Shown one piece after another: positions 1 through 47,592 of a stretch of DNA of 64,000 nt. The notes under the pieces were generated by a model, which did not search any database, had not been told where the DNA came from, and was given only the letters and a program-made list of their open reading frames with translations. Each line of letters begins with the position of its first letter. Position 1 is the first letter of the stretch. The position numbers and the translations under genes are program-made. Where the stretch lies: contig JBDRJV010000007.1 in assembly GCA_043814605.1 (NCBI GenBank), positions 195,354 to 259,353 of the forward strand, in the 5' to 3' direction. The stretch comes from Candidatus Omnitrophota bacterium (GTDB taxonomy: Bacteria > Omnitrophota > Gorgyraeia > B26-G9).

Positions 1-249
1 CAGGCGCAAGAAGCAGGTTTAAACGTAATTAATGTAAAACCGCTTTTAGAAAAAGACGAAGATTTATATAGACGCTTTAATTTTAAGTTAGAAACTGAAG
101 GGGAATTAAAAAATTTTGGAAAATTTCTCTATAAATTAGATGATTCATCCTATTTGTTTACAATTAAATATGCGCAAATTAATGCGCAGGAACAGGATCA
201 ACCTTTAAAATTTCAATTTCTTTTATCGGTGGCAATTCCTAAGGGCTAA
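1..249 (+). CDS. Type IV pilus assembly protein, PilO-like; 3' fragment, 5' end lies outside the window
   Basis: Frame 1 is open from position 1 to TAA at 247-249 (…LETEGELKNFGKFLYKLDDSSYLFTIKYAQINAQ…). It sits immediately upstream of pilP-like and pilQ genes on the same strand. Identity is inferred mainly from the conserved pilMNOPQ gene order. Confidence 0.4.
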   Translation, partial: QAQEAGLNVINVKPLLEKDEDLYRRFNFKLETEGELKNFGKFLYKLDDSSYLFTIKYAQINAQEQDQPLKFQFLLSVAIPKG

Positions 250-263
250 AGAATGGCAAAGCG

Positions 264-752
264 ATGAGCATAAGCGATCAAACATTAAAAGCTACGGATA
301 TTATAAATCTGATATTCGGAGTGATTGCAGGTATATGCCTGATTATTTTATTCTCTTTTATGTTTTCCGGAACAAAGAATTTAGATATTCTTCAAAACAG
401 CCAGAATAAAAAGGTAGGTGTAAATTTAGAGCTTAAATCTTTTAAGAAACCAATACAATATTATGAACGAATTTTAAGCCGCAGAAGGTTATTTTTAGGG
501 CAGGGATTATCCGAAACGAATAAACCTGCAAGTATTAATACAGAACAATTTAATTTACGTTTTTCTGATTTACAGTTATTAGGGGTTGTTTCCGGGGCAA
601 AAGGACCGCAAGCCATAATTAATGATGCAAAAACCGACCAGTCATACTATTGTTCTGGCAATGAAGAAGTCGGTGGTTTTTATGTTAAAGAAGTGCTTCC
701 GAATAAGGTAATTTTAGAATTAAACGGTGAAAAATTGGAATTAAGATTATGA
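264..752 (+). CDS. Type IV pilus assembly protein PilP-like (single N-terminal TM helix)
   Basis: 162-aa ORF with a hydrophobic N-terminal segment (IINLIFGVIAGICLIILFSF). It lies directly upstream of the secretin gene and its stop overlaps the secretin start, as PilP does. Confidence 0.4.
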   Translation: MSISDQTLKATDIINLIFGVIAGICLIILFSFMFSGTKNLDILQNSQNKKVGVNLELKSFKKPIQYYERILSRRRLFLGQGLSETNKPASINTEQFNLRFSDLQLLGVVSGAKGPQAIINDAKTDQSYYCSGNEEVGGFYVKEVLPNKVILELNGEKLELRL

Positions 753-2374
753 AAAAAATAGATTTTAAAATTTTTAAAATTTTCAAAATAAGTAATGTGA
801 TTGATTACGCAATCCTGTGCATTTTGACTTTTATTTTTATGAATTTATTGTGTCTTGGGGGATTAGATCGTGTTTCGGCGCAGGAACAAGCAGAAAGTGC
901 TAATATCCAAATTAAGCAAAAAATGTTGGGTGATGAAACTGGGGAAAAAAAATTACTGATTGATCTGGATGTAAAAAATATGAGTATTATTGATGTGCTT
1001 AGATTACTTGCCGAACAGGGGCAGGTAAATATTGTGGCCAGCCGTAATGTGCAGGGCAGAGTAAGTGCTAAACTACAGGATGTGACCATAGAACAGGCGT
1101 TAGATGCAATTTTAGAAGCGAATAATTTTATTTTTAAACAGGAAAAAGGAATAATTAAAGTAATTACCCAACAAGATGCTTTGCAGCAAGAACAAACAGA
1201 AAAATTAATCAGCCGGGTTTTTTTCTTGAATAATGTAAAAGCTGCGGATTTAAAGCAGGTTTTAAATTCATTGAAATCTCCTCGTGGCCGCGTGGAAATT
1301 AACACAATTTCAAATCAAATTATTATTACGGATACTGTAGATAAAATTAAGGAGGTTGAGGATTCAATATTGGTTTTAGACCGTAAATTAGTTACGCAAA
1401 TTTATAATTTGAATTATGCACAGGCTAAAGAGATGCAAGTAAAAATTTTAGAAATAATTCCCAAGCAGGAAGGCGAAGTTTTTGTGGATGAGCGAACGAA
1501 TAGTTTAGTGGTCAGGGCTATTCCGGAAACAATTGACAAAATTGATATGCTGGTTAAAAATTGGGATAAGCGTTCGCAGCAGGTTTTAATTGAAGCCAAG
1601 ATTATGGAGATATCTTTGGATAAGTCTTCGGGATTAGGGGTTAATTGGGAATATTTGAGCACTACCGGAGAAGATGCTGTGTCTGTTAGCGGAAGTTTAC
1701 CGGCAAGTATTGCCACCGGAGGCACGTTAAGGGTTGGTACATTATCTAAGGATCAGTATCAGGTAACATTGCAGGCATTGGAAAGTTCAACTGATACAAA
1801 TATTTTATCAAATCCGCGGATTGTAGTTTTAAATAATAATGAAGCAAATATTTTAGTGGGAAGTTCAGAACCCTATTTAGTGACTTATATTGATAAAGAG
1901 ACAAGTACGCAAACTGAGGAGACGAAGTTTATTGATGTGGGCATTAAATTGAATGTTTTGCCGCGGATTAGTGATGATGATTTTATTACTTTAAAAATTC
2001 ACCCAGAAGTAAGTTCCGCCCGTCGTGTGGCGGAAGTTAATAATTCTTTAGCGGTAGATACAACTCAGGCCGATACAACCGTGGTTGTTAAAGATGGTAA
2101 AACTATTGTTTTGGGAGGGTTGATAAAAGACACAGAATCTTTAGTGGAAAGTAAAATTCCTGTGCTCGGGAACATCCCTTTATTGGGAGTATTTTTTCGC
2201 AGCCGAGCGCGTAGTGATGTAAAAAAGGAAATAGTTGTATTTATCACGCCGCATATTATAAAGCAAGATTTTTTTATGGAAGATTATAAAAAAAGAGAAG
2301 ATGCAATGGAGGAAGCTGTTAATAGTGCTTTAAACAAATGGAAAAAATGGGAGGAAATTAATGCTCCGAAGTAA
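749..2374 (+). CDS. pilQ: Type IV pilus secretin PilQ (GspD/PilQ secretin family)
   Basis: 541 aa. C-terminal secretin domain signature (…TTVVVKDGKTIVLGGLIKDTESLVESKIPVLGNIPLLGVFFRSRARSDVKKEIVVFITPHII). N-terminal signal/TM segment and N0/N1-type repeats (…SLVVRAIPETIDKI…). Confidence 0.85.
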   Translation: MKKIDFKIFKIFKISNVIDYAILCILTFIFMNLLCLGGLDRVSAQEQAESANIQIKQKMLGDETGEKKLLIDLDVKNMSIIDVLRLLAEQGQVNIVASRNVQGRVSAKLQDVTIEQALDAILEANNFIFKQEKGIIKVITQQDALQQEQTEKLISRVFFLNNVKAADLKQVLNSLKSPRGRVEINTISNQIIITDTVDKIKEVEDSILVLDRKLVTQIYNLNYAQAKEMQVKILEIIPKQEGEVFVDERTNSLVVRAIPETIDKIDMLVKNWDKRSQQVLIEAKIMEISLDKSSGLGVNWEYLSTTGEDAVSVSGSLPASIATGGTLRVGTLSKDQYQVTLQALESSTDTNILSNPRIVVLNNNEANILVGSSEPYLVTYIDKETSTQTEETKFIDVGIKLNVLPRISDDDFITLKIHPEVSSARRVAEVNNSLAVDTTQADTTVVVKDGKTIVLGGLIKDTESLVESKIPVLGNIPLLGVFFRSRARSDVKKEIVVFITPHIIKQDFFMEDYKKREDAMEEAVNSALNKWKKWEEINAPK

Positions 2375-4901
2375 AGGCGCCTTTCTTTTTTTTTGTTTTT
2401 CTTTAATTTTAATAATAAATATTTTTTTTGCGGGTATTGTTTTTGCGCAGGATGACTTAACGCCAGGTTGTTTTTTAAAGGTTTCTCAAAATTTAATCAG
2501 TGCCCAAATTAAAGATGTTTTAATCACAAAGGTTAACGGGTATGATCGCATTACGATTACCGGTTTAACCAATAGTGCGGCTGCCGGAAAACCGCGGTTA
2601 CCCGTTAAAACGGTTAAATATTTAGTCCCAGCTTCAATGCAGGTAAAAAATATTAGTGTGGCCTGGACAACTAAACAAACAGTTCCCGGTAGTTATCAAA
2701 TTGAGCCAGCGCAAGCTGTATATCCTTTGAGTTATAAAGGGATTATTAAGCCTACCTTGCCGGATGTAACGGTTTACAACTCCTTTTCATCTTATCCTGG
2801 TAAAATTTATGAAATTGTATCTGTTCAAAAATTCAGGGGTTATGAAATTCTAATTATTAATTTATATCCGGTTGAATATATTCCAGCCTTAGGTGCAATT
2901 TCCTATTATAAAAATCTAAACCTGAATGTAGAGCTTGAATCCGGAGTTGATGCTGATTTAATTCCTCTTTTTAGAGCTGCTCGTAAGGATCTTGAGGCAG
3001 TACAAAAAATTGTGGATAATCCTGGGCAAAGTAATACTTATCCGTTAAGTACAAAAAAACCATTAGCTCCGGGTGATGATGTGGATCTTTTGATTATTAC
3101 CAGCCCTGATTTTAAAGCTTATAGCGGAACGAATAGTTTAAGTGTTTTAGAAACGCACAAAGAATCATTAGGGGTGCAGACAAAGATTATTGATACAGCA
3201 TGGATTTATACAAACTATGCGGGAGCGGATAATCAGACTCGGATTCGTAATTGTATTAGTGATTACTATACTAACAGTGGAATAGAATACGTTCTTTTAG
3301 CCGGAGATAGTGATGGTAATTTTACAGATACAGTTGCGAGTGATGAAAGACAAGCTTATAATGATTCTAACCGTATTCCGCACCGGGGTTTTTATGCTGC
3401 ATATTCTACAGAGCTTGATTTAAATATTCCGGCAGATATGTATTATGGCTGTCTTGACGGAGACTTTAATTATAATGGGAATACGGTTTACGGAGAAACT
3501 AGTGATGGGCCTGGCGGGGGAGATGTGGATTTAATTGCCGAAGTTTATGTAGGCCGGGCTCCGGTTGATTCCACAACGGAGTTAGCCAATTTTGTCAAGA
3601 AAACTATTGCGTATGAAAATGCAACGGGCGCTTATTTAAATTCTGCTTGTTTTGTGGGAGAGTTTCTCTACGATATTTATAACACTTATGGTAAAAGTTA
3701 TATGGAAGAATTAAAAAATGGTTCTAGTGCTAATGGATATAGTACAGTAGGTATTAATGGCAGCGGATATTTTTCTTTTAATTCTCTCTACGATCAGGAT
3801 AGATCCTGGGATAAGGCAGAATTATCGGCGATTATTAATAATGGTGTGCATGTGATTAATCAAGTAGGGCATGCGACAAATACCTCTTTTGCGGCGTATA
3901 AAGGTTTTGCAAACTATGATGTTGATGTTTTAACAAATACGGATTATTTTTTTGGTTTTACGCAAGGATGTTATTCTGGGGCATTTGATAATCGTAATAG
4001 TAATTTAAATTATGAATCCGATGATTGTGTTTTAGAGCATTTTGTTAGCGAGCCGGCCGGTGCTTTTGCGTTTATTGGTAATTCCCGTTACGGCTGGTAT
4101 GAGCCGGGCGGTACAGATGGGCCTTCGCAGCTTTACCAGCGAGAATTCTGGGATGCAGTGTTTAAAGAGGGTTTTAAAAATATTGGCCGGGCCTTGGCTG
4201 ATGCCAAGGAAGATAATATTGGAGTGATTAATGCCAACGGAGCAAATCGTTGGAGTTATTTTGAAACTAATCTTTTGGGTGATCCCCAAACCCCTTTAAA
4301 CATAGAGGTTTTATCACCGCGAAATTTTACTGCTTCGAATATCAATTTTTCTAATTCTAGCTGGGTAAGTTTAACCTGGCAAAATCCGCAAAAGTCAGAT
4401 TTTTCACAGATAATGATCCGCTATCGTACAGATGGTGTTTATCCGGCGAATTCTACAGACGGTACTTTGCTCTGCTCTAAAGCTGCAACTGCGGGTGTAT
4501 TGGATAGTTTTAATCATCAAGCTATTAGTGCTAATACAACCTATAATTATGCAGGATTTGGTTATAATGGCATTATTTATGAAGGCAATGGTTCGGCGAA
4601 TAATCGGGCTAATTTAACCACGGTAGGTGCAGGTAGTGATGATTCCTCTCGCAGTAATTGTTTTGTAGCTACAGCGTGTTATGGGGATGAAAATGCTCCG
4701 GATGTGATTACTCTAAAAAATTTTAGGGATAATTTTTTAATAAAATTTTATGCAGGAAAAAAAATTATTAGTGCTTATTATTTGTTCGGACCGTATTTAG
4801 CTGATTTTATCCGGGAGAAGCAAGGGATTAAAAAATCGGTTAGCTTGTGCCTTAAACCTGTAGTTTTTGTTAGTAATCTTTTGATAGGAGGATGCCAATA
4901 A
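2361..4901 (+). CDS. Secreted peptidase C25 (gingipain-like) family protein with FN3-like region and Cys-rich hydrophobic C-terminal tail (CFI-box-like)
   Basis: 846 aa with a signal peptide (MLRSKGAFLFFCFSLILIINIFFAGIVFAQDD). Putative catalytic His (VINQVGHATNT) and Cys (FTQGCYSGAFD) lie ~33 residues apart, as in C25/gingipain. The C-terminus reads CFVATACYGDENAPDVITLKNFRDNFL…. The start overlaps the pilQ stop by 14 nt. Confidence 0.6.
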   Translation: MLRSKGAFLFFCFSLILIINIFFAGIVFAQDDLTPGCFLKVSQNLISAQIKDVLITKVNGYDRITITGLTNSAAAGKPRLPVKTVKYLVPASMQVKNISVAWTTKQTVPGSYQIEPAQAVYPLSYKGIIKPTLPDVTVYNSFSSYPGKIYEIVSVQKFRGYEILIINLYPVEYIPALGAISYYKNLNLNVELESGVDADLIPLFRAARKDLEAVQKIVDNPGQSNTYPLSTKKPLAPGDDVDLLIITSPDFKAYSGTNSLSVLETHKESLGVQTKIIDTAWIYTNYAGADNQTRIRNCISDYYTNSGIEYVLLAGDSDGNFTDTVASDERQAYNDSNRIPHRGFYAAYSTELDLNIPADMYYGCLDGDFNYNGNTVYGETSDGPGGGDVDLIAEVYVGRAPVDSTTELANFVKKTIAYENATGAYLNSACFVGEFLYDIYNTYGKSYMEELKNGSSANGYSTVGINGSGYFSFNSLYDQDRSWDKAELSAIINNGVHVINQVGHATNTSFAAYKGFANYDVDVLTNTDYFFGFTQGCYSGAFDNRNSNLNYESDDCVLEHFVSEPAGAFAFIGNSRYGWYEPGGTDGPSQLYQREFWDAVFKEGFKNIGRALADAKEDNIGVINANGANRWSYFETNLLGDPQTPLNIEVLSPRNFTASNINFSNSSWVSLTWQNPQKSDFSQIMIRYRTDGVYPANSTDGTLLCSKAATAGVLDSFNHQAISANTTYNYAGFGYNGIIYEGNGSANNRANLTTVGAGSDDSSRSNCFVATACYGDENAPDVITLKNFRDNFLIKFYAGKKIISAYYLFGPYLADFIREKQGIKKSVSLCLKPVVFVSNLLIGGCQ

Positions 4902-5884
4902 TGAAGCAAGGTTGTTGGTTTTTTTATATTCGCTGTATGTTTAGTTTTTTTATAATTTTGTTTACATTTACAAGTTTTAGTTATGCTTCTGAAGGCGGTG
5001 CGCGCCCGACATCTATGGGTGGTGCGTATGTTGCGATTTCTGATGATGTACACGCAGCGAGTTGGAATCCAGCCGGTCTGGGTTGGCAGAGAGATCGGGA
5101 AATTTCTTATTCGGGAATAATAAATTGCCGGGATGATTATATCACGGGTGATTTTATTAGTGATGACTATCTAGCTTATGCGCAGCCAATCGAATTTGGC
5201 GTAAGCAATGATGTTAATCCGTACGGCGGAATTGGTTTTTATTTTCATAATAATAACTATAGTTCGAGTACAGTCAAAACTTCTTTATGGCAGCCGGGAA
5301 TTGCTTATGGCCGAAGATTTTCGTCGTATGAAAATATGGGATGGGGAATTGCTTTAAATTATTATATGTTTGATTCTCAAATTCCCGGGCAAACAACTGC
5401 AGATGAGGCAATTTCGTTTAACCTGGGATATTTATGGTATTTAAATAATCAGCTCACATTAGGTTTGCTTTGTGAAAATGTGAATGAGCCGACCTATACG
5501 GTTCATGGAATTACTAATCGGTTGATTCGAGTAATGCGTCCGGGAATGGCCTATTATTTTAGTGATAATACGCTGATGAGTTTTGATATTTATGATTTAA
5601 CCGGGAATACGAGTGGTCGAGGCGGCGATTACAGTCAAAATTTACGGCTGGGATTTGAGCATTATTTTACAGATGAAATTTCTGTGCGTTTAGGAGTACA
5701 TCATCCTAACTCTAAAGTTGATGCAAGTAAGTTTTACAGCCTAGGATTAGGGCTAATGCATGCGGATTTTTTGAGCCTTTATCCTGTAACTTATTATATA
5801 GACTACACTTTTATATATTGGCAGGATCCGGTGGCTGGCTTTGAGGATTACACCCACCAGCTGGGACTGATAATAAGGTTTTAA
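4892..5884 (+). CDS. Outer-membrane beta-barrel protein, PorV/PorQ-like (putative)
   Basis: 330 aa with a signal peptide. The N-terminal motif SEGGARPTSMGGAYVAISDDVHAASWNPAGLGW resembles the PorV/LptO-family N-terminus. The protein is rich in aromatic/Gly beta-strand-like segments and ends in an aromatic residue (…LIIRF). It overlaps the C25 peptidase gene end by 10 nt. Confidence 0.4.
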   Translation: MPIMKQGCWFFYIRCMFSFFIILFTFTSFSYASEGGARPTSMGGAYVAISDDVHAASWNPAGLGWQRDREISYSGIINCRDDYITGDFISDDYLAYAQPIEFGVSNDVNPYGGIGFYFHNNNYSSSTVKTSLWQPGIAYGRRFSSYENMGWGIALNYYMFDSQIPGQTTADEAISFNLGYLWYLNNQLTLGLLCENVNEPTYTVHGITNRLIRVMRPGMAYYFSDNTLMSFDIYDLTGNTSGRGGDYSQNLRLGFEHYFTDEISVRLGVHHPNSKVDASKFYSLGLGLMHADFLSLYPVTYYIDYTFIYWQDPVAGFEDYTHQLGLIIRF

Positions 5885-5920
5885 TTTAATAAAGACTATA
5901 CGTATATTTTTGCTCTTTTC

Positions 5921-5949
5921 TTGACTTAACATTATACATATGATATACT
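5921..5949 (+). promoter_or_regulatory. Sigma70-type promoter (TTGACT-17-TATACT)
   Basis: -35 TTGACT at 5921-5926, a 17-nt spacer, -10 TATACT at 5944-5949. It lies upstream of the small ORF 6034-6243. Confidence 0.45.
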
Positions 5950-6033
5950 TCAAGTAGAGGGTAATTTTTTTTACAAACTATCTAAATACTTTTATAATCT
6001 TATTAGTATGATCAAGTTAAAAGAGATAATGCC

Positions 6034-6243
6034 ATGAACGAAATAAAGTCAAATAATTTATTTATTCAACGCAGGTTTCAGGTTCAAAAAGAAATCGGAT
6101 CAAAAAATTTTAATTTGATCGGGTCTTTATACATTGCCTACTATTTTTATGTAAAAGAAGAATTATATGTATCTAAGTATGCGATTTGTGTTAAGATTAT
6201 AAAAACTGAAGCTCAAATTAAAGAATTACTTATGAAACAATAA
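6034..6243 (+). CDS. Hypothetical small protein (69 aa)
   Basis: ORF between a consensus promoter (5921-5949) and an intrinsic terminator (6268-6297). No recognisable domain; weak RBS. Confidence 0.3.
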   Translation: MNEIKSNNLFIQRRFQVQKEIGSKNFNLIGSLYIAYYFYVKEELYVSKYAICVKIIKTEAQIKELLMKQ

Positions 6244-6267
6244 ATTTTTATTTAAACAATTATTAAT

Positions 6268-6297
6268 AAAGCTCCTCTAATTGAGGAGCTTTTTTAT
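6268..6297 (+). terminator. Rho-independent terminator
   Basis: Hairpin AAGCTCCTC-TAATT-GAGGAGCTT followed by a T-run (6290-6296). Confidence 0.6.
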
Positions 6298-6326
6298 TTG
6301 ACATTATTGCCTAAATCTAGTAAAAT
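6298..6326 (+). promoter_or_regulatory. Sigma70-type promoter (TTGACA-17-TAAAAT)
   Basis: -35 TTGACA at 6298-6303, a 17-nt spacer, -10 TAAAAT at 6321-6326. It lies ~50 nt upstream of the M16 peptidase start. Confidence 0.5.
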
Positions 6327-6377
6327 TAATAAATTAAGTAATTTTTTTTAAAAATTCATGCCTATTTTGTTAAAACC

Positions 6378-7682
6378 ATGTATAAAATCAGTAAACTTGA
6401 AAATGATGTACGGATTGCAACATATTTAATGCCAAAAATGCAGACTGCGGCAATTGGAGTATGGGTCTATGTAGGAGGCCGGGATGAATTAAAGGAAAAA
6501 AACGGCATTTCCCATTTTATTGAACATTTGGCTTTTAAGGGGACAAACAAGCGCTCAATGCTTCAAATTAAAGCCGCGGTTGAAGGAATAGGCGGCGTAC
6601 TTAATGCATTTACTACGGAAGAACTAACGTGCTATTTGGCTAAAGTTTCGGGAAAGCATGCTGAGCAAACGACAGAAGTTCTTTTGGATTTAGTCTTAAA
6701 TTGCCAGTGTAAAAATAAAGATATTAAAAAGGAAAGAAATGTTATTTTTGAAGAAATAAAAATGTATTCGGATTTACCGCAGCATTTGGCATTTGATAAA
6801 TTATTAAAGCTGCTTTGGCCGGATCATGCTTTAGGCCGGAATTTAACGGGAAGTTTTCAAACTTTGAATAATTTAACACGTAAAGATATCATCCGGTTTA
6901 AAGGACATTACTACAGAGCAGAGAATATGTTAATTACTGCCTGCGGCTGCTTAAATCATGTGAAAGTTGTAAAAGTTATAAATAAATTTTTTGCTAGTAA
7001 TCCGGAGCTAAATAAAAATAGAAATGAAGGAAATGAGAAGTTTATAAAAAATATTATTAAAGTAAAAGAGTCACAAAAAAAAGCACAGTTGCAAATTTTC
7101 CGTAAAGATACTCAGCAAACCCATCTTTGTTTTGGCCTGCGTGCTTTAAAAAAAAATGATCCGCGTGAATATGTACTCACATTAATGCATATAATTTTGG
7201 GGGCAAATATGTCGAGTCGGTTATTTAATGAATTACGGGAAAAAAAAGGTTATGCTTACGATATTGGTACGGGTATTAAAAAATTTTCTGATACCGGAGC
7301 TTTTTTTATTCATGCCGGTGTTGTGAATAAATACGCGGAGCGTGTTTGTGAAATCATTTTGAAACAGTTGACTAAATTAAAAAACGTTCTGGTCCCAGGG
7401 GAAGAGCTGCAAAGAGCTAAGGAATTTTATTTTGGACAAATGTTAATGACATTGGAAGATCCGCTGGAGCGGATGGTTTGGCAGGGTGAAAATATTTTAA
7501 AAACCGGTAAAGCAAAAACAACCCGGGAAATAATTAACAAGGCTAAAAAAGTTAGCGCAGCGGAAATACGTAAATTAGCAAAATCAATCTTTATTAATGA
7601 TGCGTTGAATTTATCGATTGTCGGTCCGGTAAAAAATAGTCAATCTCAACGCATTAATGAACTTTTGAAAGGATTTAATTAA
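6378..7682 (+). CDS. M16 family zinc metallopeptidase (pitrilysin/insulinase-like)
   Basis: 434 aa; inverted zinc-binding motif HxxEH present (GISHFIEHLAFKGT). Confidence 0.85.
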   Translation: MYKISKLENDVRIATYLMPKMQTAAIGVWVYVGGRDELKEKNGISHFIEHLAFKGTNKRSMLQIKAAVEGIGGVLNAFTTEELTCYLAKVSGKHAEQTTEVLLDLVLNCQCKNKDIKKERNVIFEEIKMYSDLPQHLAFDKLLKLLWPDHALGRNLTGSFQTLNNLTRKDIIRFKGHYYRAENMLITACGCLNHVKVVKVINKFFASNPELNKNRNEGNEKFIKNIIKVKESQKKAQLQIFRKDTQQTHLCFGLRALKKNDPREYVLTLMHIILGANMSSRLFNELREKKGYAYDIGTGIKKFSDTGAFFIHAGVVNKYAERVCEIILKQLTKLKNVLVPGEELQRAKEFYFGQMLMTLEDPLERMVWQGENILKTGKAKTTREIINKAKKVSAAEIRKLAKSIFINDALNLSIVGPVKNSQSQRINELLKGFN

Positions 7683-7684
7683 TC

Positions 7685-8335
7685 ATGAAGAGACCTTTAA
7701 TTGCTCCGTCAATCTTATCGGCTGATTTTTGCTGCTTGGCAGCAGAAGTAAAGAGTGTAGAAAAAATTGGAGTGGACATGCTCCATGTTGATGTTATGGA
7801 TGGCCATTATGTGCCGAATATTACCATCGGGCCCGCAGTTGTGGCGGCTTTGAAAAAAAGAACAAAAGTTCCTTTAGATGTACATTTGATGATTGAAAAT
7901 CCATTATTTTTTTTAGACGATTTTATGAAAGCAGGTAGTTCCATAATCACTATACATATTGAGGCTTGCTCTTTAAATACAATAAAAAAAATCAGTCAAA
8001 AACTCAAAAAAGCAAAAATTAAAATGGGAATTAGCCTGAATCCTGAAACTCCGTTAAAAAAGATTAAAAAAACCCTTAGCTATGCGGATTTAATTTTAGT
8101 AATGAGTGTTAACCCTGGATTTGGCGGACAGTCGTTTATGCCGGTTGTGTTAGCTAAAATTAAAGCGTTACGGAAAATATTCAAGGGAGATATTGAGGTT
8201 GACGGCGGGATTACAGAAAAAACTGCAAAGCTTGTTTGCGCCTGCGGTGCGAATATTCTTGTTGCGGGTTCGTATATTTTTAATGCTAAAAATAGAAAAG
8301 CGGCAATAAATAGGTTAAAAAAATGCAAGCAATAA
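7685..8335 (+). CDS. rpe: Ribulose-phosphate 3-epimerase
   Basis: 216 aa; N-terminus IAPSILSADF…LHVDVMDGHYVPNITIGP and VMSVNPGFGGQSF are typical Rpe motifs. Confidence 0.9.
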   Translation: MKRPLIAPSILSADFCCLAAEVKSVEKIGVDMLHVDVMDGHYVPNITIGPAVVAALKKRTKVPLDVHLMIENPLFFLDDFMKAGSSIITIHIEACSLNTIKKISQKLKKAKIKMGISLNPETPLKKIKKTLSYADLILVMSVNPGFGGQSFMPVVLAKIKALRKIFKGDIEVDGGITEKTAKLVCACGANILVAGSYIFNAKNRKAAINRLKKCKQ

Positions 8336-9699
8336 AATTTGGTACAGACGGATTTAGAGGCATTATTGCGGATAATTTTACTTTTGAAAATGTAGAAAAA
8401 ATTGCTACGGCATTTGGACTTTATTTGCTCCAATGCAGAAACCCTAAGCTAATAAGGGGTGTGCTTATTGGCTATGACCGGCGTTTTTTATCTCAGGAGT
8501 TTGCCCAGGCTTTTGCGGATATTTTAGTGAATTTAGGTATCAATGTTCTACTAAGTGAAGAACCGGTGCCTACGCCTGCGGTAAGTTATTTTATCCGGAA
8601 AAATAAATTATTCTGCGGTGTAGTCATCACGGCCAGCCATAACCCGGCAAGTTTTAACGGTGTTAAAATTAAGAATGAATTCGGCGCATCAGTAGAGAGT
8701 AATGTTACTAAAGAAATAGAAAGAATAATAAGCAAAAATATAAATCCTAATTTTAAAGTAAAAATTTGTGGCAAAATAAAAAAAGTTAGAATTACAGATG
8801 ATTATGTCAGTTTTATAAAACGATATTTAAATATACCATTATTGAAAAAATTTCGGTATAAAATTGTAGTCGATAATATGCACGGAGTTGGAGCAGGTAT
8901 TATTGAAAAAATATTAAAAGATACTCCGATTAAAATTGAGAGCATTAGGAATTACAGAGATGTTCTTTTCGGCAGTGTGAACCCTGAGCCGATCGAGAAA
9001 AATTTAGGATTTTTACACAAGTTTATAAAAACCCATAAGTGTGATTTGGCTATTGCCTTAGACGGAGATGCAGACAGAATTGGCGCAATGAGCGCAAGCG
9101 GTCATTTTATTAGTTCGCATCAAGCAATTTGTTTATTATTACTGCATTTGATTGAAAATAAAAAATTCACCGGCAAAGTAGTAAAAAGTATTAATACAAC
9201 AACTATGGTTGATAAAATTACACGGTTTTACGGATTAGAACAAGAAGAGGTTCCAGTAGGATTTAAGTATATTGCGATAAAAATGTTAAAAGAAAATGTT
9301 TTGCTGGGAGGGGAAGAGTCCGGTGGAATTGGATTTAAAAATTATATGCCGGAGCGCGATGGGGTTCTTTCGGGGTTATTACTGCTAGAATTAATGGCGT
9401 ATAAAAGAAAATCAATAATTCAGATAATACGTGAAATGGAAAAAAAATTCGGCCGGTTTGTATATTTACGGCGCGATTTAAAAATTAATACGGTAAAAAA
9501 AATAAAACACCCTAAATTAATAAACGGTAAAAAGGTAGTTGAAATTAAAACTTATGATGGAACAAAGTTTATTTTGAATGATGAAAGCTGGCTTTTAATC
9601 CGTGCTTCCGGCACAGAGCCAATTGTCAGAATCTATGCAGAATCAGGGAATCTAATCAGCACAAAACAATTAATTAATTTTGGCGGTAATTTATTATAA
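8323..9699 (+). CDS. Phosphoglucomutase/phosphomannomutase family protein
   Basis: 458 aa; active-site loop TASHNP (GVVITASHNPASFNGVKI) and the Mg-binding DGDADR motif are present. Confidence 0.8.
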   Translation: MQAIKFGTDGFRGIIADNFTFENVEKIATAFGLYLLQCRNPKLIRGVLIGYDRRFLSQEFAQAFADILVNLGINVLLSEEPVPTPAVSYFIRKNKLFCGVVITASHNPASFNGVKIKNEFGASVESNVTKEIERIISKNINPNFKVKICGKIKKVRITDDYVSFIKRYLNIPLLKKFRYKIVVDNMHGVGAGIIEKILKDTPIKIESIRNYRDVLFGSVNPEPIEKNLGFLHKFIKTHKCDLAIALDGDADRIGAMSASGHFISSHQAICLLLLHLIENKKFTGKVVKSINTTTMVDKITRFYGLEQEEVPVGFKYIAIKMLKENVLLGGEESGGIGFKNYMPERDGVLSGLLLLELMAYKRKSIIQIIREMEKKFGRFVYLRRDLKINTVKKIKHPKLINGKKVVEIKTYDGTKFILNDESWLLIRASGTEPIVRIYAESGNLISTKQLINFGGNLL

Positions 9700-20708: not shown

Positions 20709-23700
20709 ATGAAACAAGGTATACGCTATTATTCTTATTTTATTTTAGTATGTTTTTTAGTTAATATGTTAACAGTGAATGTTGGGTTGGCTTTTGATTT
20801 AAAGGCACAGCAGGATATGCTAATGTCCGATGAGGTAATCCAGGGAATTTTTGGCAGCCAGATTTCAGAACAAAGCCAGTCAAGTGATTTAAATCGGGAA
20901 ATAGCACCGGCGCCGAAAGTAATCACTACTTCTAACGGAGATGTCTACATTTATTCTGATGAAGGTGCTTCCGCACAAGTATCTAAGAATGAAACCGGGC
21001 ATACAGAAGTAACCTATTCCTTAAACGGAGCAAAAATTAAAATTAAAAATGAAAATACAGGTGAGGAATTTTCTTATCGCTATAATTTAAACGGCGCTCA
21101 GGTAAGTTTATACAGAATTGATGAAAATGGGAATGAAGCTTTGGTTTCTACTCAAACATTTAATAATTTTGGACAGCTTACTTCTACAGCAGGCCAAGGT
21201 AAAATTACTTATATTTATTCTCAAGACAACCCTGATATTTTGGTTAAATCAATTGATCAATGGGGCAATGAAACAATTTATGATGATCAGGGCCGGCCAG
21301 ATTATATTATTAATTATGATTCTGATGGTAATCAGGTTCAAGTGGGAAATTATACTTTTAATTCACGCGGAATTTTAGAAACTTTTGTCGATTATAATAA
21401 GAATGTGACGCATTTTGAAAATGACGGGATTAGACCGAGTTTTACTACCAATGCTCAAGGCACAACCACAAAGACATATACTTATGACGCAGATGGCCAT
21501 TTAGCTCAGGTTACGGACGAAGTAAACGGGCAGATTACCATAGTAGAAGACGGATACTACACAGTCACTTATAATGTTGAACCGGTTATGGATGAGCAGG
21601 GTGTTCCGGTTTTAGATGCGAACGGAGATCCAGTGGAGAATACAGTTTTAGTTGGCGCCTATAATTATAATGCTGCGGGTCAATTGGAAAGTATGACTAA
21701 TTTTGGCGATGAAGGAACCATGATGGGCTGGACTGAATTTGATGCTACCGGTCAAATATCCGGCGCTTATAACCAGCACGGGGTATTAATACAGGAGTAT
21801 TTTTATAATCAATTTGGCTTTCTTGAATACACAGTTGCTTTAGGCGCACTTAATAATTTAACTGATCAGCAAGTTAAAACTACTTATACAATTATGGATG
21901 ATCAGGGCCGGCCAAAGGAGGTTTGGCAGATTGGTGATGGCGGCAACAAAGTAAAAATCCAAGAATATGAATATGGCGCAGACGGATTGCTTGCGGCAAC
22001 TTATAGCTTAGGTATTATGCGCGGGTCAGATGAAAATAATCAAACTACTTACTGTCAGCCGATTAATGCGCAGGGCAATTTAGCTACAGATGAATCAGAA
22101 TATGTTTATTTTAGAACTTCAAAAACAGTATTTGATAGAAAAGGGCGTCCGGAATCAGTTTCGGCAGTCTGCTATCAAAGAGATGAGAATGATAATTTCA
22201 TTGTTGATGCCAATGGCGCTCCAGTGGCTGACCGAGATGAAGATGGGCAAATAATTTATGAAAAACAGCAGTCCTATAAATATAACTCCAAAGGTTTTCT
22301 TGCGGAAACTATCTCCTATGGTTTTAACGGCAGAATTACCGGAAAAACTGTATTTGATAAATTTGGCAGGCCGGAAGAGTCGTCAAATGGACAGGGGACA
22401 CTTACCCAGCGATATGTATATGGGGATGATGGATTTTTAAAGAAAACCATAAACTTTGGCGAAGATGGGGTGCAGACAGGACATACTTTGTATGATGAAA
22501 AAGCCAAACCCACAGAAGTATACAATCATGCAGGAACTTTAGTGCAAAAATATGTGTACGATGAAAACGGCTTGATGGTTATGAGCCTTAATTTAAACGG
22601 AGAAGACGGCTTAAACGGCATGCTTGTTTCTTCGATGGAAGATGCGGAATTAATTGCCGCAATGTGGGATAATTCTTTTGATGCTGAGATTATTGCCGTT
22701 ACCGGCAGTTTTGACAATCAGGCTTTAATGAATGCCATGTGGGAAAATATGGAGAGTAATCCGGAATTAGCAAAAAAGATCTGCCTGAAAGTAATCCAGC
22801 TTTTTAGTGACGGAGCAAAAGGCGGGGATCAGAACTTAATTAATGATGTAGGAACTGCTTATCATATGCTCGGACAGTTTTTAGAAGCAGAAGGTGATCA
22901 AGCTGGCGCAATTGCTGCCTATAAAGTTCAAGGCAGTGAGTTTACTGCAGCGATGGCGATTGGCGCTAGCGGTAATCCTGAATCAGTTACCGCTTGGTCC
23001 ACAGACCGCTTAGCACAAATGAATGACGGAGAAGGTGCAGATACAGCAGTGGTTACAGGGTATACAATTTTTGGCGGAGATTCTAAACCAATGGCATCTT
23101 ATCAATGCTATAATGACGGGCAAAATGGGTTACAAGTAACAAAGGTTCAGGATTTTATTTATAGTTATCAAACTACGGAAAGACGTTTAGTCGGACAAGA
23201 TGCAGAAGGTAAAGATGTATATGTTGATATTGAAGTTACAAGATTTTCAAATTCAGTACAGAAAACCGTTAATTATGGTGATAACGGTGCGGAAACTGGA
23301 TATACTTTATTTGATGATTATGGCAGGCAAAAAGCTACTTATAATGAGGAAGGACAGGTAACGCAAAAATATACATACAGCCGTGAGGGTTTTTTAACGT
23401 TAACTAAATCTTATGGTGTAGATGGCGCTTGTACAGGAGCAACAGTTTTTGATAAGTATTCCCGGCCAGTAGCTTCTTTTAATTTAGCCGGCAGTACGGT
23501 TTCTATCCCGGATGATTTAATTGCCGCTTTAAGTAATGGCCTGACAGAAGCGGATTTAGAAAATACACAATGGCAGCCGTATTTAAAAGGATTATCACAA
23601 ACTTTTGAATATAATGCAGAAACCGGGCTTATGGAATCCAGCAAATCCTGGGGTGAAGCTGTTGAGATAAGTGCAGCTAATATTGGGAATTTTGCCGATG

Positions 23701-26700
23701 CTTTAGGTTCTATTGAAGGCGATAAGAATTATAGTGTGGATTATGATTTTAATAGTGACGGGGTGATTAATGACGCAGATTTAGCGATATTCGAAGCTGC
23801 ATTTAGTGGTGCAAGTAATTTTGTGGCAGCTTATGGCTCAACTACAGGTGATGCTAATTTTGATCCCAGTTTAGATACCAATCAAGACGGTGTGATTAAT
23901 CGAACTGATGCCTCTGGGTTTAGCCGCACTTTTAGTAAGCCCACTAAATATCAGCCGACATTTACAGGTACGACATCCTATGATAAGTATGGTAAAGCTG
24001 TGGAAGTAACTAATGCTGAAGGTTCTGTGGTTAGCCGTTATGCGTATAATGAACGCGGTTTTATGATCAGATCAGATTCTTTTAGCTTAGATGAACAGGG
24101 TAATGAAATCAGAACCGGGTTTACTTTATTTGACGATAAATCTAGGCCAACGGAAACATATTCTGTTTATAATAATGGCAGTGGAGAACAAGCCGCATTA
24201 GCTCAAGTATATTTTTATAAAGATGGCTTTCTAGAACGAACTAAAAACTATGGAAAAGAAGGAACCTACACTGGTGAAACAGTATTTGATAAATACGGCA
24301 GACAGAGTGTGAGTTATAATGAAGAGGGCCAAAAAATATCTTCTTACAGCTACTCAAATCAGGGATTTTTAAAAAGTACTTCGAATTACGGGTTAGAGGG
24401 TGCGTATTTGGGAAAAACAGTTTTTGACCGCAAAGGCAGGCCGGCAGAATCCTATAATATGAGCGGAGCCCTGACCCAGAAATTTAATTATAATGAAGCT
24501 ACAGGGTTTATGCAATCCAGCACAAGTTATGGAGACCTTGATGAACAGGGCAATCCGACCCTGACTCAAACTACATTTTATGACGGTTATGGCAAAGCAA
24601 TACGCTCTGAAAATGAGCTGGGTATTGTGACCACAACTTTTGATTACGATGCTCAAGGATTTATGCTTAAATCAAACAGCTTAGCTTTTGTTGAAGATCC
24701 GGCTGCTGCGAATGCAATAACAATTACAAATAAAAATGCCGAAACTTTAACGGGTTATTATGTGGTTACCGGTTATACAGAATACGATAATTATTCCCGT
24801 CCCACAACAACCTATCAAGGCTACTGGGCTGATGAGCAAACAGGAGTGCAGACATTTTCTAAAGTGCAGGAATTTACATATGATAAAGGTTTTTTAGTCA
24901 GCACAGAAAGCTTTGGCCGCAACGGTGTTTCTACAGGCACAACAACTTTTGACCGTTATGGACGACAGGATGTCTCGAAAAATGAGTACGGAGAAGTAAC
25001 CACAAAATATAGATACTCTAACCGGGGATTTTTAAGTCAAACGTATAACTATGGGGCAAACGGTGCAATTACCGGAAGCACAACTTTTAATAGTTTAGGC
25101 CGTCCGGTTGAGGCTTATAATCAAAACAGAAAATTAGTGCAAACTTTTGAATATAATAAATCTACCGGAGCATTATTATTCAGCGAATCTTATAATTATG
25201 ATGATGCAGGCAATCAATTTAAAACTCAAATCACAACTTATGATGCTTTTGGTAAGGCAGATAAGGTATACAATACAATTGAAGATATAAATGATATTGA
25301 CCAGGATGGCGATACGACAGAATTAATAAAGGGTTATATGGTATCTTCATATCACTATGATGCTAGCGGATTTATGCTTAAGAGTTTTAGCTATGGCGAA
25401 CCGGATTTAGCAGAAACGCCTGCAGATGGAGGAGAATATCGAGGCCCTGTAACTGGTTTTACAATATTTGGCGATAGTGGCCGTCCAGAAGCTTCTTATA
25501 CTGTACATAATGGTAACTGGGATCCATTAGTACTAATTAATTTTAAAAGTGGAGATCAATTACCAGCAGGTGTAGCATTATCACAAGTGTTTATTTATAA
25601 CACTGATTTAGCTGGTACAAAGGATGCCAGTGCTGTAGAAAATTATCTGGCTGGGCCGCGTGAACAGAATACAGGTTTTGTAACTTTGACTGTGCGGTAT
25701 GGTGATAATCAAACTTTTGTGGAATTTACAACAATGAATAGATACGGACAGCAGGATACTTCTTATAATAACTACAGTGAGAAAACAACACAATTTAGGT
25801 ATAATTCATCCGGATCTTTAAGCCAAACCTATAATTATACTTTTGGCGGAAGAATATCCGGTAAAACCTATTTTAATGGAATGGGCAGGCCAGTCAAAGC
25901 TGTAAATGAATCGGGAATTCTGGTGCAGACTTTTAATTATAATAGTGCTACAGGTTTTCTGACGAGTACTGATACTTATGGAGCACCGGATGCTGAAGGT
26001 AAACAGGAAGTCACCCAGACAACATACTATAATGCAGAAGGAAAACAAACACATACTACCAATCCCGAAGGACAGACAGTTAGTAGGTTTGTCTATAATG
26101 AACGAGGATTTTTAACTGCTTCAGAAAACTGGGCTGTAGATGATAATGGGGTAGAAGTAAAAATCGGCTACACGGAAATGAGCGCAGAAACAGGCCGGCC
26201 AATTGCTTCCTACAGTGTTTCATCAACTGGCCTTGCCGTGAAAACTGCTGATTTTATCTATAGTACAGGTGCAATTACAGATAATGATGCGGCTCAAGCT
26301 TATGCCGCAATGTCACCTGCTGAACGTGATGCCGTGAACGATACTGGATTTGTACTGGGAACAATCTCATATATTGTAAATCAAAATTTAACTTCAGAAA
26401 CTACGAATATTGCCAATGTTTATAATCCGAATGCAGCAAAAACTATAGATCCGGAAACAGGAGAAGTTACTGCAGTTGATATTAGCAGCCAAATACTTTA
26501 TAACGGGTATTCAGTTAATGACAGCTATGGCCGTCAGCTTAATTCATATAATAAAGAAGGCAGCTTAATCAGCCGGAATTTCTATAAGCAGGGATTTATT
26601 AATAAAAGCATGAATTATGGAGAAGGCGGAGTGCAAATAGGGTCATTACTCTACGGTACTAATGGCAGGCCGACAATTGCGCTTAATTACCGAGGCGAAA

Positions 26701-27572
26701 AAGTCAGCGAATATCTCTATAATGATAAAGGTTTCCTTGCCCAAACACTTTCTTACTCAACCGGATTAGATGCGGACGGAAAAACTGTGGTACAGGTGAT
26801 GACTGGATACAGTAATTATGATGTCTTTGGCAAAGCCACTGAATCCTATCAGTTATTTGAAGTTGGCGAAATGGGTACGCCTCCGCCGTATGCTTATGAT
26901 GAAGACGGTTACCAGTTTGAAGCTGGCGGCAGCAAGAATTATGTTGTGATTCCTAAAGAGGATGGTAGCGGTATAGCTAAAGTTGAAACAATTAATGGCA
27001 CAGGCCTTGTTTCCAAGAATGTTTATAACGAATTTGGGGCATTACTCGAGACTCAAAACTATGGACGCGAGGGCGGTGTGATTACTACAGTAAAAATGGA
27101 CCTTTACAGCAGACCTACCATCGTTTATAATCATCTGAATGAAAAAGTACAAGAATATACATACAATAAAGATACTGGTTTCCTGAGTTATACAGTATCC
27201 TATTATAAAAAAGTGAATTCAAATGACGAAGGAGAAGTAGAAGACGGATTCAGCACGGAAAAAGAAACTTCTGTGACATTTTTTAACGCCTATGGCCAGC
27301 AATCTGTATCTTATTTATTAAACAACGAAGGAGAAGGGTTTGACGGTACATTAGATACAGTGGGTGCATTACAAAGCAAATATCAGTATAACGCTCAAGG
27401 ATTCCTGTACAAGACACTAATGTATAACGGTACAACCATGACAGGATATACAGTAAATGATGCCAGCGGCAGGCAAATCACACAATTTAATGCTTCTAAT
27501 GAGCCCACAGCATACTACTGGTATAATACTAATGGTTTCTTGCTCAGAATGTCTAATCCCACGCAGGAATAA
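20709..27572 (+). CDS. Giant secreted repeat protein (2287 aa) with YD/RHS-like ~46-aa repeats, an embedded dockerin-like Ca-binding pair and an alpha-helical insert
   Basis: Strong RBS (AAAGGGGGGG 6 nt before the ATG) and a signal peptide (MKQGIRYYSYFILVCFLVNMLTVNVGLAFD). There are dozens of degenerate repeats of the form TxFDxxGRPxxxYNxxGxLxQxYxYNxxGFLxxTxNYGxxGxxTG. The period is 46 residues, measured for example from FDKYGRQ to FDRKGRP. A dockerin-like pair lies near residues 1010-1075 (DYDFNSDGVINDADLAIFEAAF … DTNQDGVINRTDASGF). A non-repeat helical segment lies near residues 625-790. The gene is followed by an intrinsic terminator. Confidence 0.85.
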   Translation: MKQGIRYYSYFILVCFLVNMLTVNVGLAFDLKAQQDMLMSDEVIQGIFGSQISEQSQSSDLNREIAPAPKVITTSNGDVYIYSDEGASAQVSKNETGHTEVTYSLNGAKIKIKNENTGEEFSYRYNLNGAQVSLYRIDENGNEALVSTQTFNNFGQLTSTAGQGKITYIYSQDNPDILVKSIDQWGNETIYDDQGRPDYIINYDSDGNQVQVGNYTFNSRGILETFVDYNKNVTHFENDGIRPSFTTNAQGTTTKTYTYDADGHLAQVTDEVNGQITIVEDGYYTVTYNVEPVMDEQGVPVLDANGDPVENTVLVGAYNYNAAGQLESMTNFGDEGTMMGWTEFDATGQISGAYNQHGVLIQEYFYNQFGFLEYTVALGALNNLTDQQVKTTYTIMDDQGRPKEVWQIGDGGNKVKIQEYEYGADGLLAATYSLGIMRGSDENNQTTYCQPINAQGNLATDESEYVYFRTSKTVFDRKGRPESVSAVCYQRDENDNFIVDANGAPVADRDEDGQIIYEKQQSYKYNSKGFLAETISYGFNGRITGKTVFDKFGRPEESSNGQGTLTQRYVYGDDGFLKKTINFGEDGVQTGHTLYDEKAKPTEVYNHAGTLVQKYVYDENGLMVMSLNLNGEDGLNGMLVSSMEDAELIAAMWDNSFDAEIIAVTGSFDNQALMNAMWENMESNPELAKKICLKVIQLFSDGAKGGDQNLINDVGTAYHMLGQFLEAEGDQAGAIAAYKVQGSEFTAAMAIGASGNPESVTAWSTDRLAQMNDGEGADTAVVTGYTIFGGDSKPMASYQCYNDGQNGLQVTKVQDFIYSYQTTERRLVGQDAEGKDVYVDIEVTRFSNSVQKTVNYGDNGAETGYTLFDDYGRQKATYNEEGQVTQKYTYSREGFLTLTKSYGVDGACTGATVFDKYSRPVASFNLAGSTVSIPDDLIAALSNGLTEADLENTQWQPYLKGLSQTFEYNAETGLMESSKSWGEAVEISAANIGNFADALGSIEGDKNYSVDYDFNSDGVINDADLAIFEAAFSGASNFVAAYGSTTGDANFDPSLDTNQDGVINRTDASGFSRTFSKPTKYQPTFTGTTSYDKYGKAVEVTNAEGSVVSRYAYNERGFMIRSDSFSLDEQGNEIRTGFTLFDDKSRPTETYSVYNNGSGEQAALAQVYFYKDGFLERTKNYGKEGTYTGETVFDKYGRQSVSYNEEGQKISSYSYSNQGFLKSTSNYGLEGAYLGKTVFDRKGRPAESYNMSGALTQKFNYNEATGFMQSSTSYGDLDEQGNPTLTQTTFYDGYGKAIRSENELGIVTTTFDYDAQGFMLKSNSLAFVEDPAAANAITITNKNAETLTGYYVVTGYTEYDNYSRPTTTYQGYWADEQTGVQTFSKVQEFTYDKGFLVSTESFGRNGVSTGTTTFDRYGRQDVSKNEYGEVTTKYRYSNRGFLSQTYNYGANGAITGSTTFNSLGRPVEAYNQNRKLVQTFEYNKSTGALLFSESYNYDDAGNQFKTQITTYDAFGKADKVYNTIEDINDIDQDGDTTELIKGYMVSSYHYDASGFMLKSFSYGEPDLAETPADGGEYRGPVTGFTIFGDSGRPEASYTVHNGNWDPLVLINFKSGDQLPAGVALSQVFIYNTDLAGTKDASAVENYLAGPREQNTGFVTLTVRYGDNQTFVEFTTMNRYGQQDTSYNNYSEKTTQFRYNSSGSLSQTYNYTFGGRISGKTYFNGMGRPVKAVNESGILVQTFNYNSATGFLTSTDTYGAPDAEGKQEVTQTTYYNAEGKQTHTTNPEGQTVSRFVYNERGFLTASENWAVDDNGVEVKIGYTEMSAETGRPIASYSVSSTGLAVKTADFIYSTGAITDNDAAQAYAAMSPAERDAVNDTGFVLGTISYIVNQNLTSETTNIANVYNPNAAKTIDPETGEVTAVDISSQILYNGYSVNDSYGRQLNSYNKEGSLISRNFYKQGFINKSMNYGEGGVQIGSLLYGTNGRPTIALNYRGEKVSEYLYNDKGFLAQTLSYSTGLDADGKTVVQVMTGYSNYDVFGKATESYQLFEVGEMGTPPPYAYDEDGYQFEAGGSKNYVVIPKEDGSGIAKVETINGTGLVSKNVYNEFGALLETQNYGREGGVITTVKMDLYSRPTIVYNHLNEKVQEYTYNKDTGFLSYTVSYYKKVNSNDEGEVEDGFSTEKETSVTFFNAYGQQSVSYLLNNEGEGFDGTLDTVGALQSKYQYNAQGFLYKTLMYNGTTMTGYTVNDASGRQITQFNASNEPTAYYWYNTNGFLLRMSNPTQE

Positions 27573-42352: not shown

Positions 42353-42361
42353 AACATTTAA

Positions 42362-43456: not shown

Positions 43457-43467
43457 ATTTTTATTTA

Positions 43468-44256: not shown

Positions 44257-44413
44257 AACAAGAAAAATTTATTAATAAAATGGAACCCCCACGGGCTAAA
44301 GCCCGTGGTTCCTGGGGTGGAATACTCAAGCGGCCTCCTTTTATCCGCGCCATAAATGGGCGCGGTTTTAGGCCGCGGATGTATAAAGTTTAGCTCAAGC
44401 ACAGTTCTCAACA

Positions 44414-47582: not shown

Positions 47583-47592
47583 AATAATAGAT

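Follow-up and report, generated by a model that had tools for sequence, protein, structure and literature searches.

The stretch of DNA analysed here, referred to below as the window, comprises 64,000 nucleotides from a metagenome-assembled genome (MAG) of the phylum Omnitrophota (contig JBDRJV010000007.1, positions 195,354 to 259,353; GC content 35%). At its left-hand end a series of closely packed genes on the plus strand encodes a secretin with two associated proteins, a protease related to gingipains, and an outer-membrane β-barrel. These genes had been read from the sequence as a type IV pilus secretin (pilQ) operon that continues into a C25 peptidase and a PorV-like protein (the original prediction). 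The three open reading frames (ORFs) concerned, 749-2374, 2361-4901 and 4892/4901-5884, were confirmed, as was the 14-nt overlap between the first two, and both peptides that had been quoted were found. As these frames extend over 541, 846 and 330 codons in a sequence of 35% GC, it is very unlikely that they are open by chance. In relatives of this locus the catalytic head of the protease is exchanged for heads of other catalytic classes, while the C-terminal tail of the protease and the barrel are kept.

The 846-residue product of the second ORF (2361..4901, +) contains a signal peptide, a gingipain-type prodomain, a C25 catalytic domain, an FN3-like domain and a CFI-box-CTERM domain. The catalytic domain (residues 244-645, nucleotides 3090-4295) matched Peptidase_C25 (PF01364) over profile positions 2-373 of 374, with E 8.9e-60 and a score of 203.3 bits (cutoff 23), and the prodomain (residues 35-195 approximately, nucleotides 2463-2945) matched Propeptide_C25 (PF08126; 30.3 bits, cutoff 22, E 2.7e-7). 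When the PDB was searched with the single sequence, one marginal match of no evident relevance was returned, and a profile was needed. A profile of 17 homologues matched RgpB (E 4.6e-9) and, in the prodomain, Kgp (5mun, E 2.8e-6) and RgpB (4ief_A, E 0.0038). In the resulting alignment GHATNT was placed on RgpB GHGSET (His211), and GCYSG on RgpB ACVNG (Cys244). The predicted catalytic pair, His504 (codon 3870-3872) and Cys537 (codon 3969-3971), has the spacing of 33 residues that had been pointed out before, and both residues are invariant across the 17 homologues. The AlphaFold 2 (AF2) model of the protein was of moderate quality overall, with a predicted local distance difference test score (pLDDT) of 67; the prodomain, the FN3 domain and a C-terminal four-helix domain were well modelled. 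Foldseek aligned the prodomain model (pLDDT about 85) with the RgpB prodomain 4ief (E 2e-10, template-modelling (TM) score 0.69-0.73).

PorU, the T9SS (type IX secretion system) enzyme of the C25 family, was a much poorer match. The PorU model NF033707 gave 72.5 bits against a cutoff of 420, and in the PDB profile search PorU was matched with E 0.26, far weaker than RgpB. No T9SS C-terminal domain (CTD) model appeared among the NCBIfam matches of the protease at E ≤ 0.1, in agreement with the original prediction. Judged by its sequence, the protein is a gingipain-type zymogen with predicted activity, and not an orthologue of PorU. The searches yielded fifteen full-length orthologues with identities of about 50%, and all that carry an organism name are from Omnitrophota. 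With about 40% identity, the protease stands closer to uncharacterised C25 proteins from many phyla of bacteria and archaea than to the gingipains, and one JGI metagenome protein (P0018, 39% identity) combines C25 with a CFI-box, without a secretin or barrel gene as neighbour.

The catalytic domain is followed by a tail of two domains. The first is a β-sandwich (residues 650-755 approximately, nucleotides 4308-4625) with a pLDDT of 80-90 and the conserved motif IRYRTDG, for which Foldseek returned FN3 domains. After a Gly/Ser-rich linker, the CFI-box-CTERM domain (residues 767-846, nucleotides 4659-4898) begins with CFVATACYG and occupies the extreme C-terminus; NF041770 matched residues 767-835 with 71.6 bits against a cutoff of 40, which bears out the CFI-box-type ending that had been proposed. 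Cys767 is invariant among the 17 aligned homologues. The original prediction had viewed this ending as a hydrophobic sorting motif. In the AF2 model it is a domain of roughly 75 residues, made up of four helices (residues 769-841), and the last helix is hydrophobic in the window protein (Kyte-Doolittle 1.73) and not in its orthologues. On these grounds a conserved transmembrane anchor was rejected as well. A Hint- or intein-like reading of the Cys-Phe start was found to be unsupported, the domain being short and helical.

No second CFI-box protein was found in the 64-kb window, and a literature search for 'CFI-box' yielded no description. In a metagenome scan the domain terminated unrelated proteins of 125-550 residues at 39 further loci. 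Proteins of this kind that lack a signal peptide by eye occur in loci L097-L135 (for example L097 4615-6270, L112 5013-6179 and L126 5389-6231), and their heads are zinc-ribbon-like, pentapeptide-repeat-like or without a family.

The barrel gene (4901..5884, +) begins at ATG 4901 (327 residues) or at ATG 4892 (330 residues). The former appears more likely, because it forms a TAATG overlap with the protease stop codon (TAA, 4899-4901), has AGGAGG 9 nt upstream, and corresponds to the start of an NCBI protein from Candidatus Omnitrophota that is 327 residues long and 100% identical (P0121). The protein has a signal peptide and a C-terminal Phe. Its AF2 model (pLDDT 84, predicted TM score 0.80) shows a FadL-type β-barrel fold, with short N-terminal helices (residues 37-65) ahead of the first strand. 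In Foldseek the best E-values were those of the transporters FadL (E 7e-10), TodX and TbuX, and the best TM score (0.63) was that of T9SS complex chain 8gl6_F, which we take to be PorV. The Pfam model for FadL matched the sequence with E 0.017, and Toluene_X also matched weakly. The PorV_fam model NF033709 matched over profile positions 11-325 of 326 with E 3.3e-16 and 59.8 bits, below its cutoff of 90, and gave 58.5 and 67.6 bits with the barrels of two related loci, L016 and L138. Thus, in hidden Markov model (HMM) searches with Peptidase_C25, CFI-box and PorV models, the first two matched above cutoff and the third below it.

A profile of Omnitrophota barrels was aligned by hhalign with nine PorV proteins encoded next to PorU, giving a probability of 99.7%, E 4.2e-27 and 269 aligned columns. 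A scan of GTDB species genomes returned 12 close Omnitrophota loci, followed by relatives of 24-30% identity in phyla of the FCB (Fibrobacterota, Chlorobiota, Bacteroidota) group. Outside Omnitrophota the nearest relatives, at 26-28% identity, belong to PorV_fam, and their genes come immediately after genuine PorU genes. A large C25-type protein is encoded directly upstream of the distant barrel at eight loci (L022, L027, L030, L031, L034, L039, L041 and L051); the three tested (L022, L027, L041) all proved to be genuine PorU (NF033707 505-688 bits, cutoff 420), and the barrels beside them exceed the PorV_fam cutoff. The order of the C25 and barrel genes in the window parallels that of porU and porV. 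The earlier description of a PorV-like protein is thus upheld at the level of the superfamily and not beyond it: by sequence, the barrel is best classed as a divergent member of the PorV/PorQ superfamily and not as a PorV equivalog.

The barrel family is large: at E ≤ 1e-30 an exhaustive HMM search gave 48 cluster representatives, and at E ≤ 1e-10 it gave 1054. In the next tier of matches all those with an organism name were again from Omnitrophota. NCBI labels these barrels 'hypothetical protein', apart from a few that are called 'conjugal transfer protein TraF'. Several paralogues (P0279, P0281, P0283, P0285 and L140 8001-9440) carry a C-terminal extension of about 140 residues that looks by eye like the C-terminal domain of TonB. 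The L140 fusion adjoins a PDZ protein and a Band_7 gene pair, and the L138 barrel also lies near a Band_7 pair and a GspC-PDZ gene. At L020, in a high-GC MAG labelled Clostridia, inspection by eye showed a cluster of Skp/OmpH, LpxD, a small outer-membrane protein, a barrel homologue, LptF/G and LptD.

The order PilO/GspM-like gene, GspC-like gene, secretin, protease, barrel was found at no fewer than 20 Omnitrophota loci. It was present in 12 of 12 close species-representative loci from GTDB where the flanks suffice, and in further metagenome loci. Two loci differ in the protease: L016 (6769-8004) and L017 (6730-7980) encode, between secretin and barrel, a protein of 411-416 residues in which Peptidase_M10 (HEIGHFFG; 39.2 bits, cutoff 24) is followed by FN3 and the CFI-box. 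At L138 the gene directly upstream of the barrel, which is more divergent (E 1.5e-88), encodes a 623-residue protein consisting of a propeptide, Peptidase_S8, FN3 and the CFI-box. The CFI-box scores of the M10 and S8 relatives were 76.6, 80.9 and 71.1 bits against the cutoff of 40. The four tails, from the window, L016, L017 and L138, are 36-41% identical over an aligned stretch of about 200 residues, with the motifs IRYRTDG and CF[VI][AT]TACYG in common. Because a single tail is thus joined to three catalytic classes, in each case with a gene of this barrel family directly downstream, the exchange of heads provides the best evidence that tail and barrel work together, with the protease head as exchangeable cargo.

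The M10 versions of the locus contain an additional gene between secretin and protease (L016 6109-6753, L017 6111-6701). Its product, a conserved secreted protein of 196-214 residues with no known family, was seen only in these versions, and might be a chaperone, an inhibitor or a substitute for a prodomain. Among NCBIfam families, 'myxosortase-dependent metalloprotease MXAN_2677/2678' comes nearest to the M10 heads of L016 and L017 (66-82 bits, short of the cutoff of 250), so that related metalloprotease heads appear to bear different C-terminal sorting tags in different phyla.

Upstream of the protease lie three genes of secretin-system type. The window begins within a PilO/GspM-like gene, of which the 3' end is present (1..249, +) and encodes a sequence 58-70% identical to the C-termini of PilO-like genes at related loci. 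The L016 orthologue exceeds the cutoffs of two models, T2SSM_b with 28.2 bits (cutoff 21.7) and PilO with 25 bits (cutoff 22). The next gene (264..752, +) encodes a GspC/PilP-like protein with an N-terminal membrane helix, the highest hydropathy being at residues 16-34, and an HR-type domain, without PDZ; it matched T2SSC (PF11356) with 33.5 bits against a cutoff of 27. The 541-residue secretin (749..2374, +) comprises an STN/N0 domain, two Secretin_N domains and a Secretin domain (PF07660, E 5.6e-9; PF03958, E 4.8e-20; PF00263, E 4.5e-48), and is 65-76% identical across related loci. The models for GspD (TIGR02517, 275.1 bits, cutoff 351.35) and PilQ (TIGR02515, 274.7 bits, cutoff 284.35) scored alike, and both remained below cutoff. 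No AMIN domain was reported by Pfam in the secretin. In relatives neither pilM nor pilN was found next to the secretin genes; the genes upstream encode a metallo-β-lactamase (MBL)-fold hydrolase, a small lipoprotein and a metallophosphoesterase.

The assignment to a type IV pilus (pilQ) operon is therefore not established. On sequence criteria, a reading of these genes as similar to a type II secretion system (T2SS) seems at least as good. A second GspC-like gene, with a PDZ domain, is located 3' of the barrel gene in L008, L016, L017 and L018 and is absent from the window, and in L138 genes for GspC-PDZ, GspG and GspH lie a few genes downstream of the protease-barrel pair.

The junctions within the gene series are tight, as had been stated earlier. 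The GspC-like gene ends at 752 and overlaps the secretin start at 749 by 4 nt; the secretin stop codon (TAA, 2372-2374) lies 14 nt within the protease ORF, whose start (ATG 2361) has a Shine-Dalgarno sequence, GGGAGG, 5 nt upstream. After the barrel gene comes a 69-residue ORF (6034..6243, +) with no family match; it is kept in L001, a 65-residue gene is called in L001, L003 and L005, and it is probably the last gene of the unit. A terminator-like hairpin with a 10-bp stem and a T-run (6268..6292, +) is followed by a promoter-like site (6298-6326) and a gene for an M16 peptidase. This arrangement suggests that the transcription unit most likely ends shortly after the barrel gene. No convincing terminator was detected upstream of the hairpin within the unit, and comparison of the intergenic region 5885-6377 with Rfam gave sub-threshold matches only, all of them on the hairpin.

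The remainder of the window contains housekeeping genes, including LptF and LptG, which indicate an outer membrane with lipopolysaccharide (LPS). These two lie within 41264-45571 (-), the sole minus-strand block of the window, where the GC skew also flattens locally. Two genes encode M16 (insulinase-type) peptidases (6378-7682 and 47533-50307, both +), the second of which is a double-length fused form. No T9SS genes were found in the 64 kb, in line with the original prediction. The 2287-residue ORF at 20709-27572 (+) was considered as a candidate SprA/Sov and rejected, since its only matches were RHS/YD-repeat and dockerin-like; large surface or toxin-like proteins have been reported for Omnitrophota, and this may be one of them.

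We propose that these genes form a module in which a pro-protease would be exported by a T2SS-like route and then retained on the cell surface by the barrel, a model to which we give about an even chance of being correct. The module would have three parts: a secretin sub-complex (GspM/PilO-like protein, GspC/PilP-like protein and secretin); a zymogen exported by Sec, with a variable head (C25, M10 or S8) and a constant tail of FN3 and helical CFI-box; and a PorV/PorQ-family barrel of FadL-type fold. The Sec pathway would deliver the pro-protease to the periplasm. Passage across the outer membrane would then take place through the co-encoded secretin, with the Ig-like FN3 domain and the tail carrying the recognition information, a part that in VesB is played by the Ig-fold towards the GspC PDZ domain. 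On the surface the tail would dock non-covalently to the barrel and so keep the protease in place, as PorV holds PorU, PorQ holds PorZ, and PorP/SprF hold type B CTD cargo; removal of the prodomain would activate it. The model thus adds an export route and a docking step, both proposed by precedent, to what the sequences show: which domains are present, that the catalytic pair is intact, how the genes are ordered and that this order is conserved, and that heads are exchanged on a constant tail and barrel.

A number of observations weigh against this model. Neither pilin or pseudopilin genes nor a T2SS ATPase gene was found in the window. Overlapping genes occur at 8 of the 27 junctions in this stretch of the genome, in some cases between unrelated genes (e.g. 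Rpe and phosphoglucomutase), and in relatives the packed run also includes the metallophosphoesterase and MBL-fold hydrolase genes; adjacency, and the 14-nt overlap itself, are for these reasons weak evidence of functional coupling when taken alone. Conservation alone does not prove a link either, as the surrounding M16, Rpe, phosphoglucomutase, LepA and LepB genes are syntenic in the same genomes. All protease-barrel pairs come from a single phylum, and the linkage may thus stem from very few evolutionary events. The 39 other CFI-box loci showed no PorV-like or secretin gene in their flanks (up to 6 kb, many contigs being of 1-3 kb), seven of seven complete N-termini examined among their proteins had no signal peptide by eye, and the domain is found in archaea too. 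Its presence on proteins without signal peptides does not sit well with a simple role as a signal for sorting to the cell surface, and the lack of barrel and secretin genes in those flanks, together with the archaeal occurrence, led us to reject the CFI-box as a general ligand of PorV-like barrels. Similarly, the divergent Omnitrophota barrel paralogues at L139 and L140 have no CFI-box neighbour, and the L020 homologue (7878-8837, 28% identity) belongs to an LPS/outer-membrane biogenesis cluster, which indicates that the PorV superfamily is also found in such settings.

The protease and barrel genes might accordingly be neighbours without any mechanistic coupling, inserted once after an ancestral secretin gene and inherited together in compact genomes. 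Synteny that extends to unrelated housekeeping genes, overlaps between unrelated genes, an upstream run of mixed functions in relatives, and the confinement of every case to one phylum would all be expected on this account. It does not readily explain why three catalytic classes with the same tail are each found directly upstream of this barrel family, one of them (L138) at a distinct locus with a divergent barrel, or why a GspC-PDZ gene is repeatedly placed 3' of the barrel, and we consider it unlikely, although the likeliest of the alternatives. The exchange of heads bears equally on the possibility that the pair serves nutrient acquisition, the protease digesting external protein and the FadL-type barrel acting as an uptake channel and not an anchor, with the secretin a mere neighbour. 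Published work has inferred the secretion of peptidases by Omnitrophota (PMC8542988), and the best Foldseek E-values, those of FadL, TodX and TbuX, as well as the weak Toluene_X match, point the same way. In sequence, however, PorV/PorQ (E 3e-16; hhalign E 4e-27) are far nearer relatives of the barrel than FadL (Pfam E 0.017), and a constant non-catalytic tail on an exchanged catalytic head is left unexplained. FadL channels, moreover, transport hydrophobic molecules and not peptides. This explanation seems to us rather improbable.

The likeness to porU-porV raises the question of a sortase complex, in which a barrel-held C25 transpeptidase would cleave the C-terminal signals of other exported proteins and attach these to the surface. 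The gene order is the same, the nearest barrels outside Omnitrophota are encoded right after genuine PorU genes, and PorU is itself a C25-family enzyme retained on the surface by PorV. We regard such a role as very improbable, mainly because M10 (L016, L017) or S8 (L138) enzymes in place of C25 are hard to reconcile with a conserved sortase and because the PorU score is low (72.5 bits, cutoff 420). In addition, the profile matched RgpB and gingipain prodomains far better than PorU, the protease shares about 40% identity with ordinary secreted C25 proteases from many phyla, and the 64-kb window contains no other CFI-box protein. The barrel could also be the translocator or insertion partner of the protease in the style of two-partner secretion, its bore plugged or threaded by the helical C-terminal domain, with the secretin serving pili or other cargo. 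This would fit the strict adjacency of the two genes, the position of the tail at the C-terminus, where elements that engage a barrel are placed, and the N-terminal helices of the barrel model (residues 37-65), which may form a movable plug like that of FadL or PorV. A barrel of about 14 strands does not, however, leave room for the passage of a folded, roughly 90-kDa protease, and neither POTRA nor TpsB-type features were seen among the Pfam and NCBIfam matches. The known PorV, PorQ and PorP barrels tether proteins and do not translocate them (PMC9143113), and of the explanations considered we find this one the least probable.

The surface-retention model, if true, would describe a new route by which enzymes are placed on the surface of a Gram-negative cell, would give the uncharacterised CFI-box domain its first functional context, and would have implications for how the T9SS attachment complex arose. 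To our knowledge, PorV-type barrels are known almost only from the T9SS of Bacteroidota and their relatives, and the C-terminal sorting tags described so far on T2SS cargo (GlyGly-CTERM, MYXO-CTERM) are tied to membrane proteases and not to barrels. Literature searches for Omnitrophota in combination with secretin, gingipain or PorV retrieved no description of a protease-barrel module from the library searched. A bolder reading, which we put forward tentatively and regard as possible but doubtful, is that Omnitrophota possess a T9SS-independent display system in which PorV-family barrels would be docking ports for interchangeable Cys, Zn and Ser pro-proteases tagged with FN3 and CFI-box and exported through a dedicated T2SS-like secretin, the pairing of a C25 enzyme with a PorV barrel being older than, or sister to, the T9SS attachment complex. 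Such a pair would then point to the origin of PorU-PorV. The Omnitrophota are regarded as predators or parasites of ultra-small size (PMC10066038), a lifestyle in which surface proteases are plausible tools for attack on host cells.

In its protease, the system most resembles the gingipains RgpB and Kgp of Porphyromonas gingivalis, with which it shares the prodomain fold, a C25 domain with His and Cys 33 residues apart, and a following Ig-like domain. It differs from them in its low sequence identity and in the lack of a T9SS CTD and of haemagglutinin/adhesin domains. In Myxococcota, MYXO-CTERM has an invariant Cys and mediates T2SS-dependent surface display (PMC11980579). The CFI-box is likewise a C-terminal tag with an invariant Cys, and it is a myxosortase-dependent family to which the M10 heads in L016 and L017 come closest. 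Its architecture is nevertheless different, and no sorting enzyme of the CPBP type was seen at the Omnitrophota loci; that the Cys might be lipidated is pure conjecture. VesB of Vibrio cholerae, a T2SS cargo that stays on the cell surface, consists of a protease, an Ig-fold and GlyGly-CTERM, and the Ig-fold holds secretion information dependent on the EpsC (GspC) PDZ domain (PMC12369372, PMC6219818). The succession of pro-protease, Ig-like domain and C-terminal sorting domain is common to both, and GspC-PDZ genes flank the module in Omnitrophota relatives. In contrast to GlyGly-CTERM, the CFI-box is helical, about 75 residues long and without the layout of motif, transmembrane helix and basic tail; a rhombosortase-type partner was not identified for the Omnitrophota module, and VesB itself has no partner barrel.

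Retention by a barrel has its closest precedents within the T9SS. Type B CTD cargo (PG1035 with PorP, SprB with SprF) is kept on the surface through a C-terminal domain bound to a PorP/SprF-like barrel (PMC9143113). There, as in Omnitrophota, the cargo gene adjoins the gene of its own barrel, whereas the Omnitrophota C-terminus is FN3 with CFI-box, the barrel belongs to the PorV/PorQ branch and the secretion route would be another. In the attachment complex of Bacteroidota and other FCB phyla, PorV holds PorU, and PorQ holds PorZ, on the cell surface (PMC11285876). With PorU-PorV the module shares a C25-family gene directly upstream of a PorV-family barrel of FadL fold, and the barrels are homologous over their full length (hhalign E 4e-27). 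We know of no T9SS in Omnitrophota, a phylum of the PVC (Planctomycetota, Verrucomicrobiota, Chlamydiota) group, and the partner genes are those for a secretin and GspC/GspM-like proteins, not SprA or PorK-N. The protease, moreover, is no PorU orthologue and lacks the T9SS CTD, and relatives replace its C25 domain with M10 or S8. Taken singly, the parts of the module are all of known kinds. The novelty lies in their combination, in a phylum of the PVC group, of a secretin with an interchangeable tagged protease and a barrel of the PorV family. The exchange of heads on a constant tail and barrel suggests a way of placing proteases on the cell surface that has not been described before.

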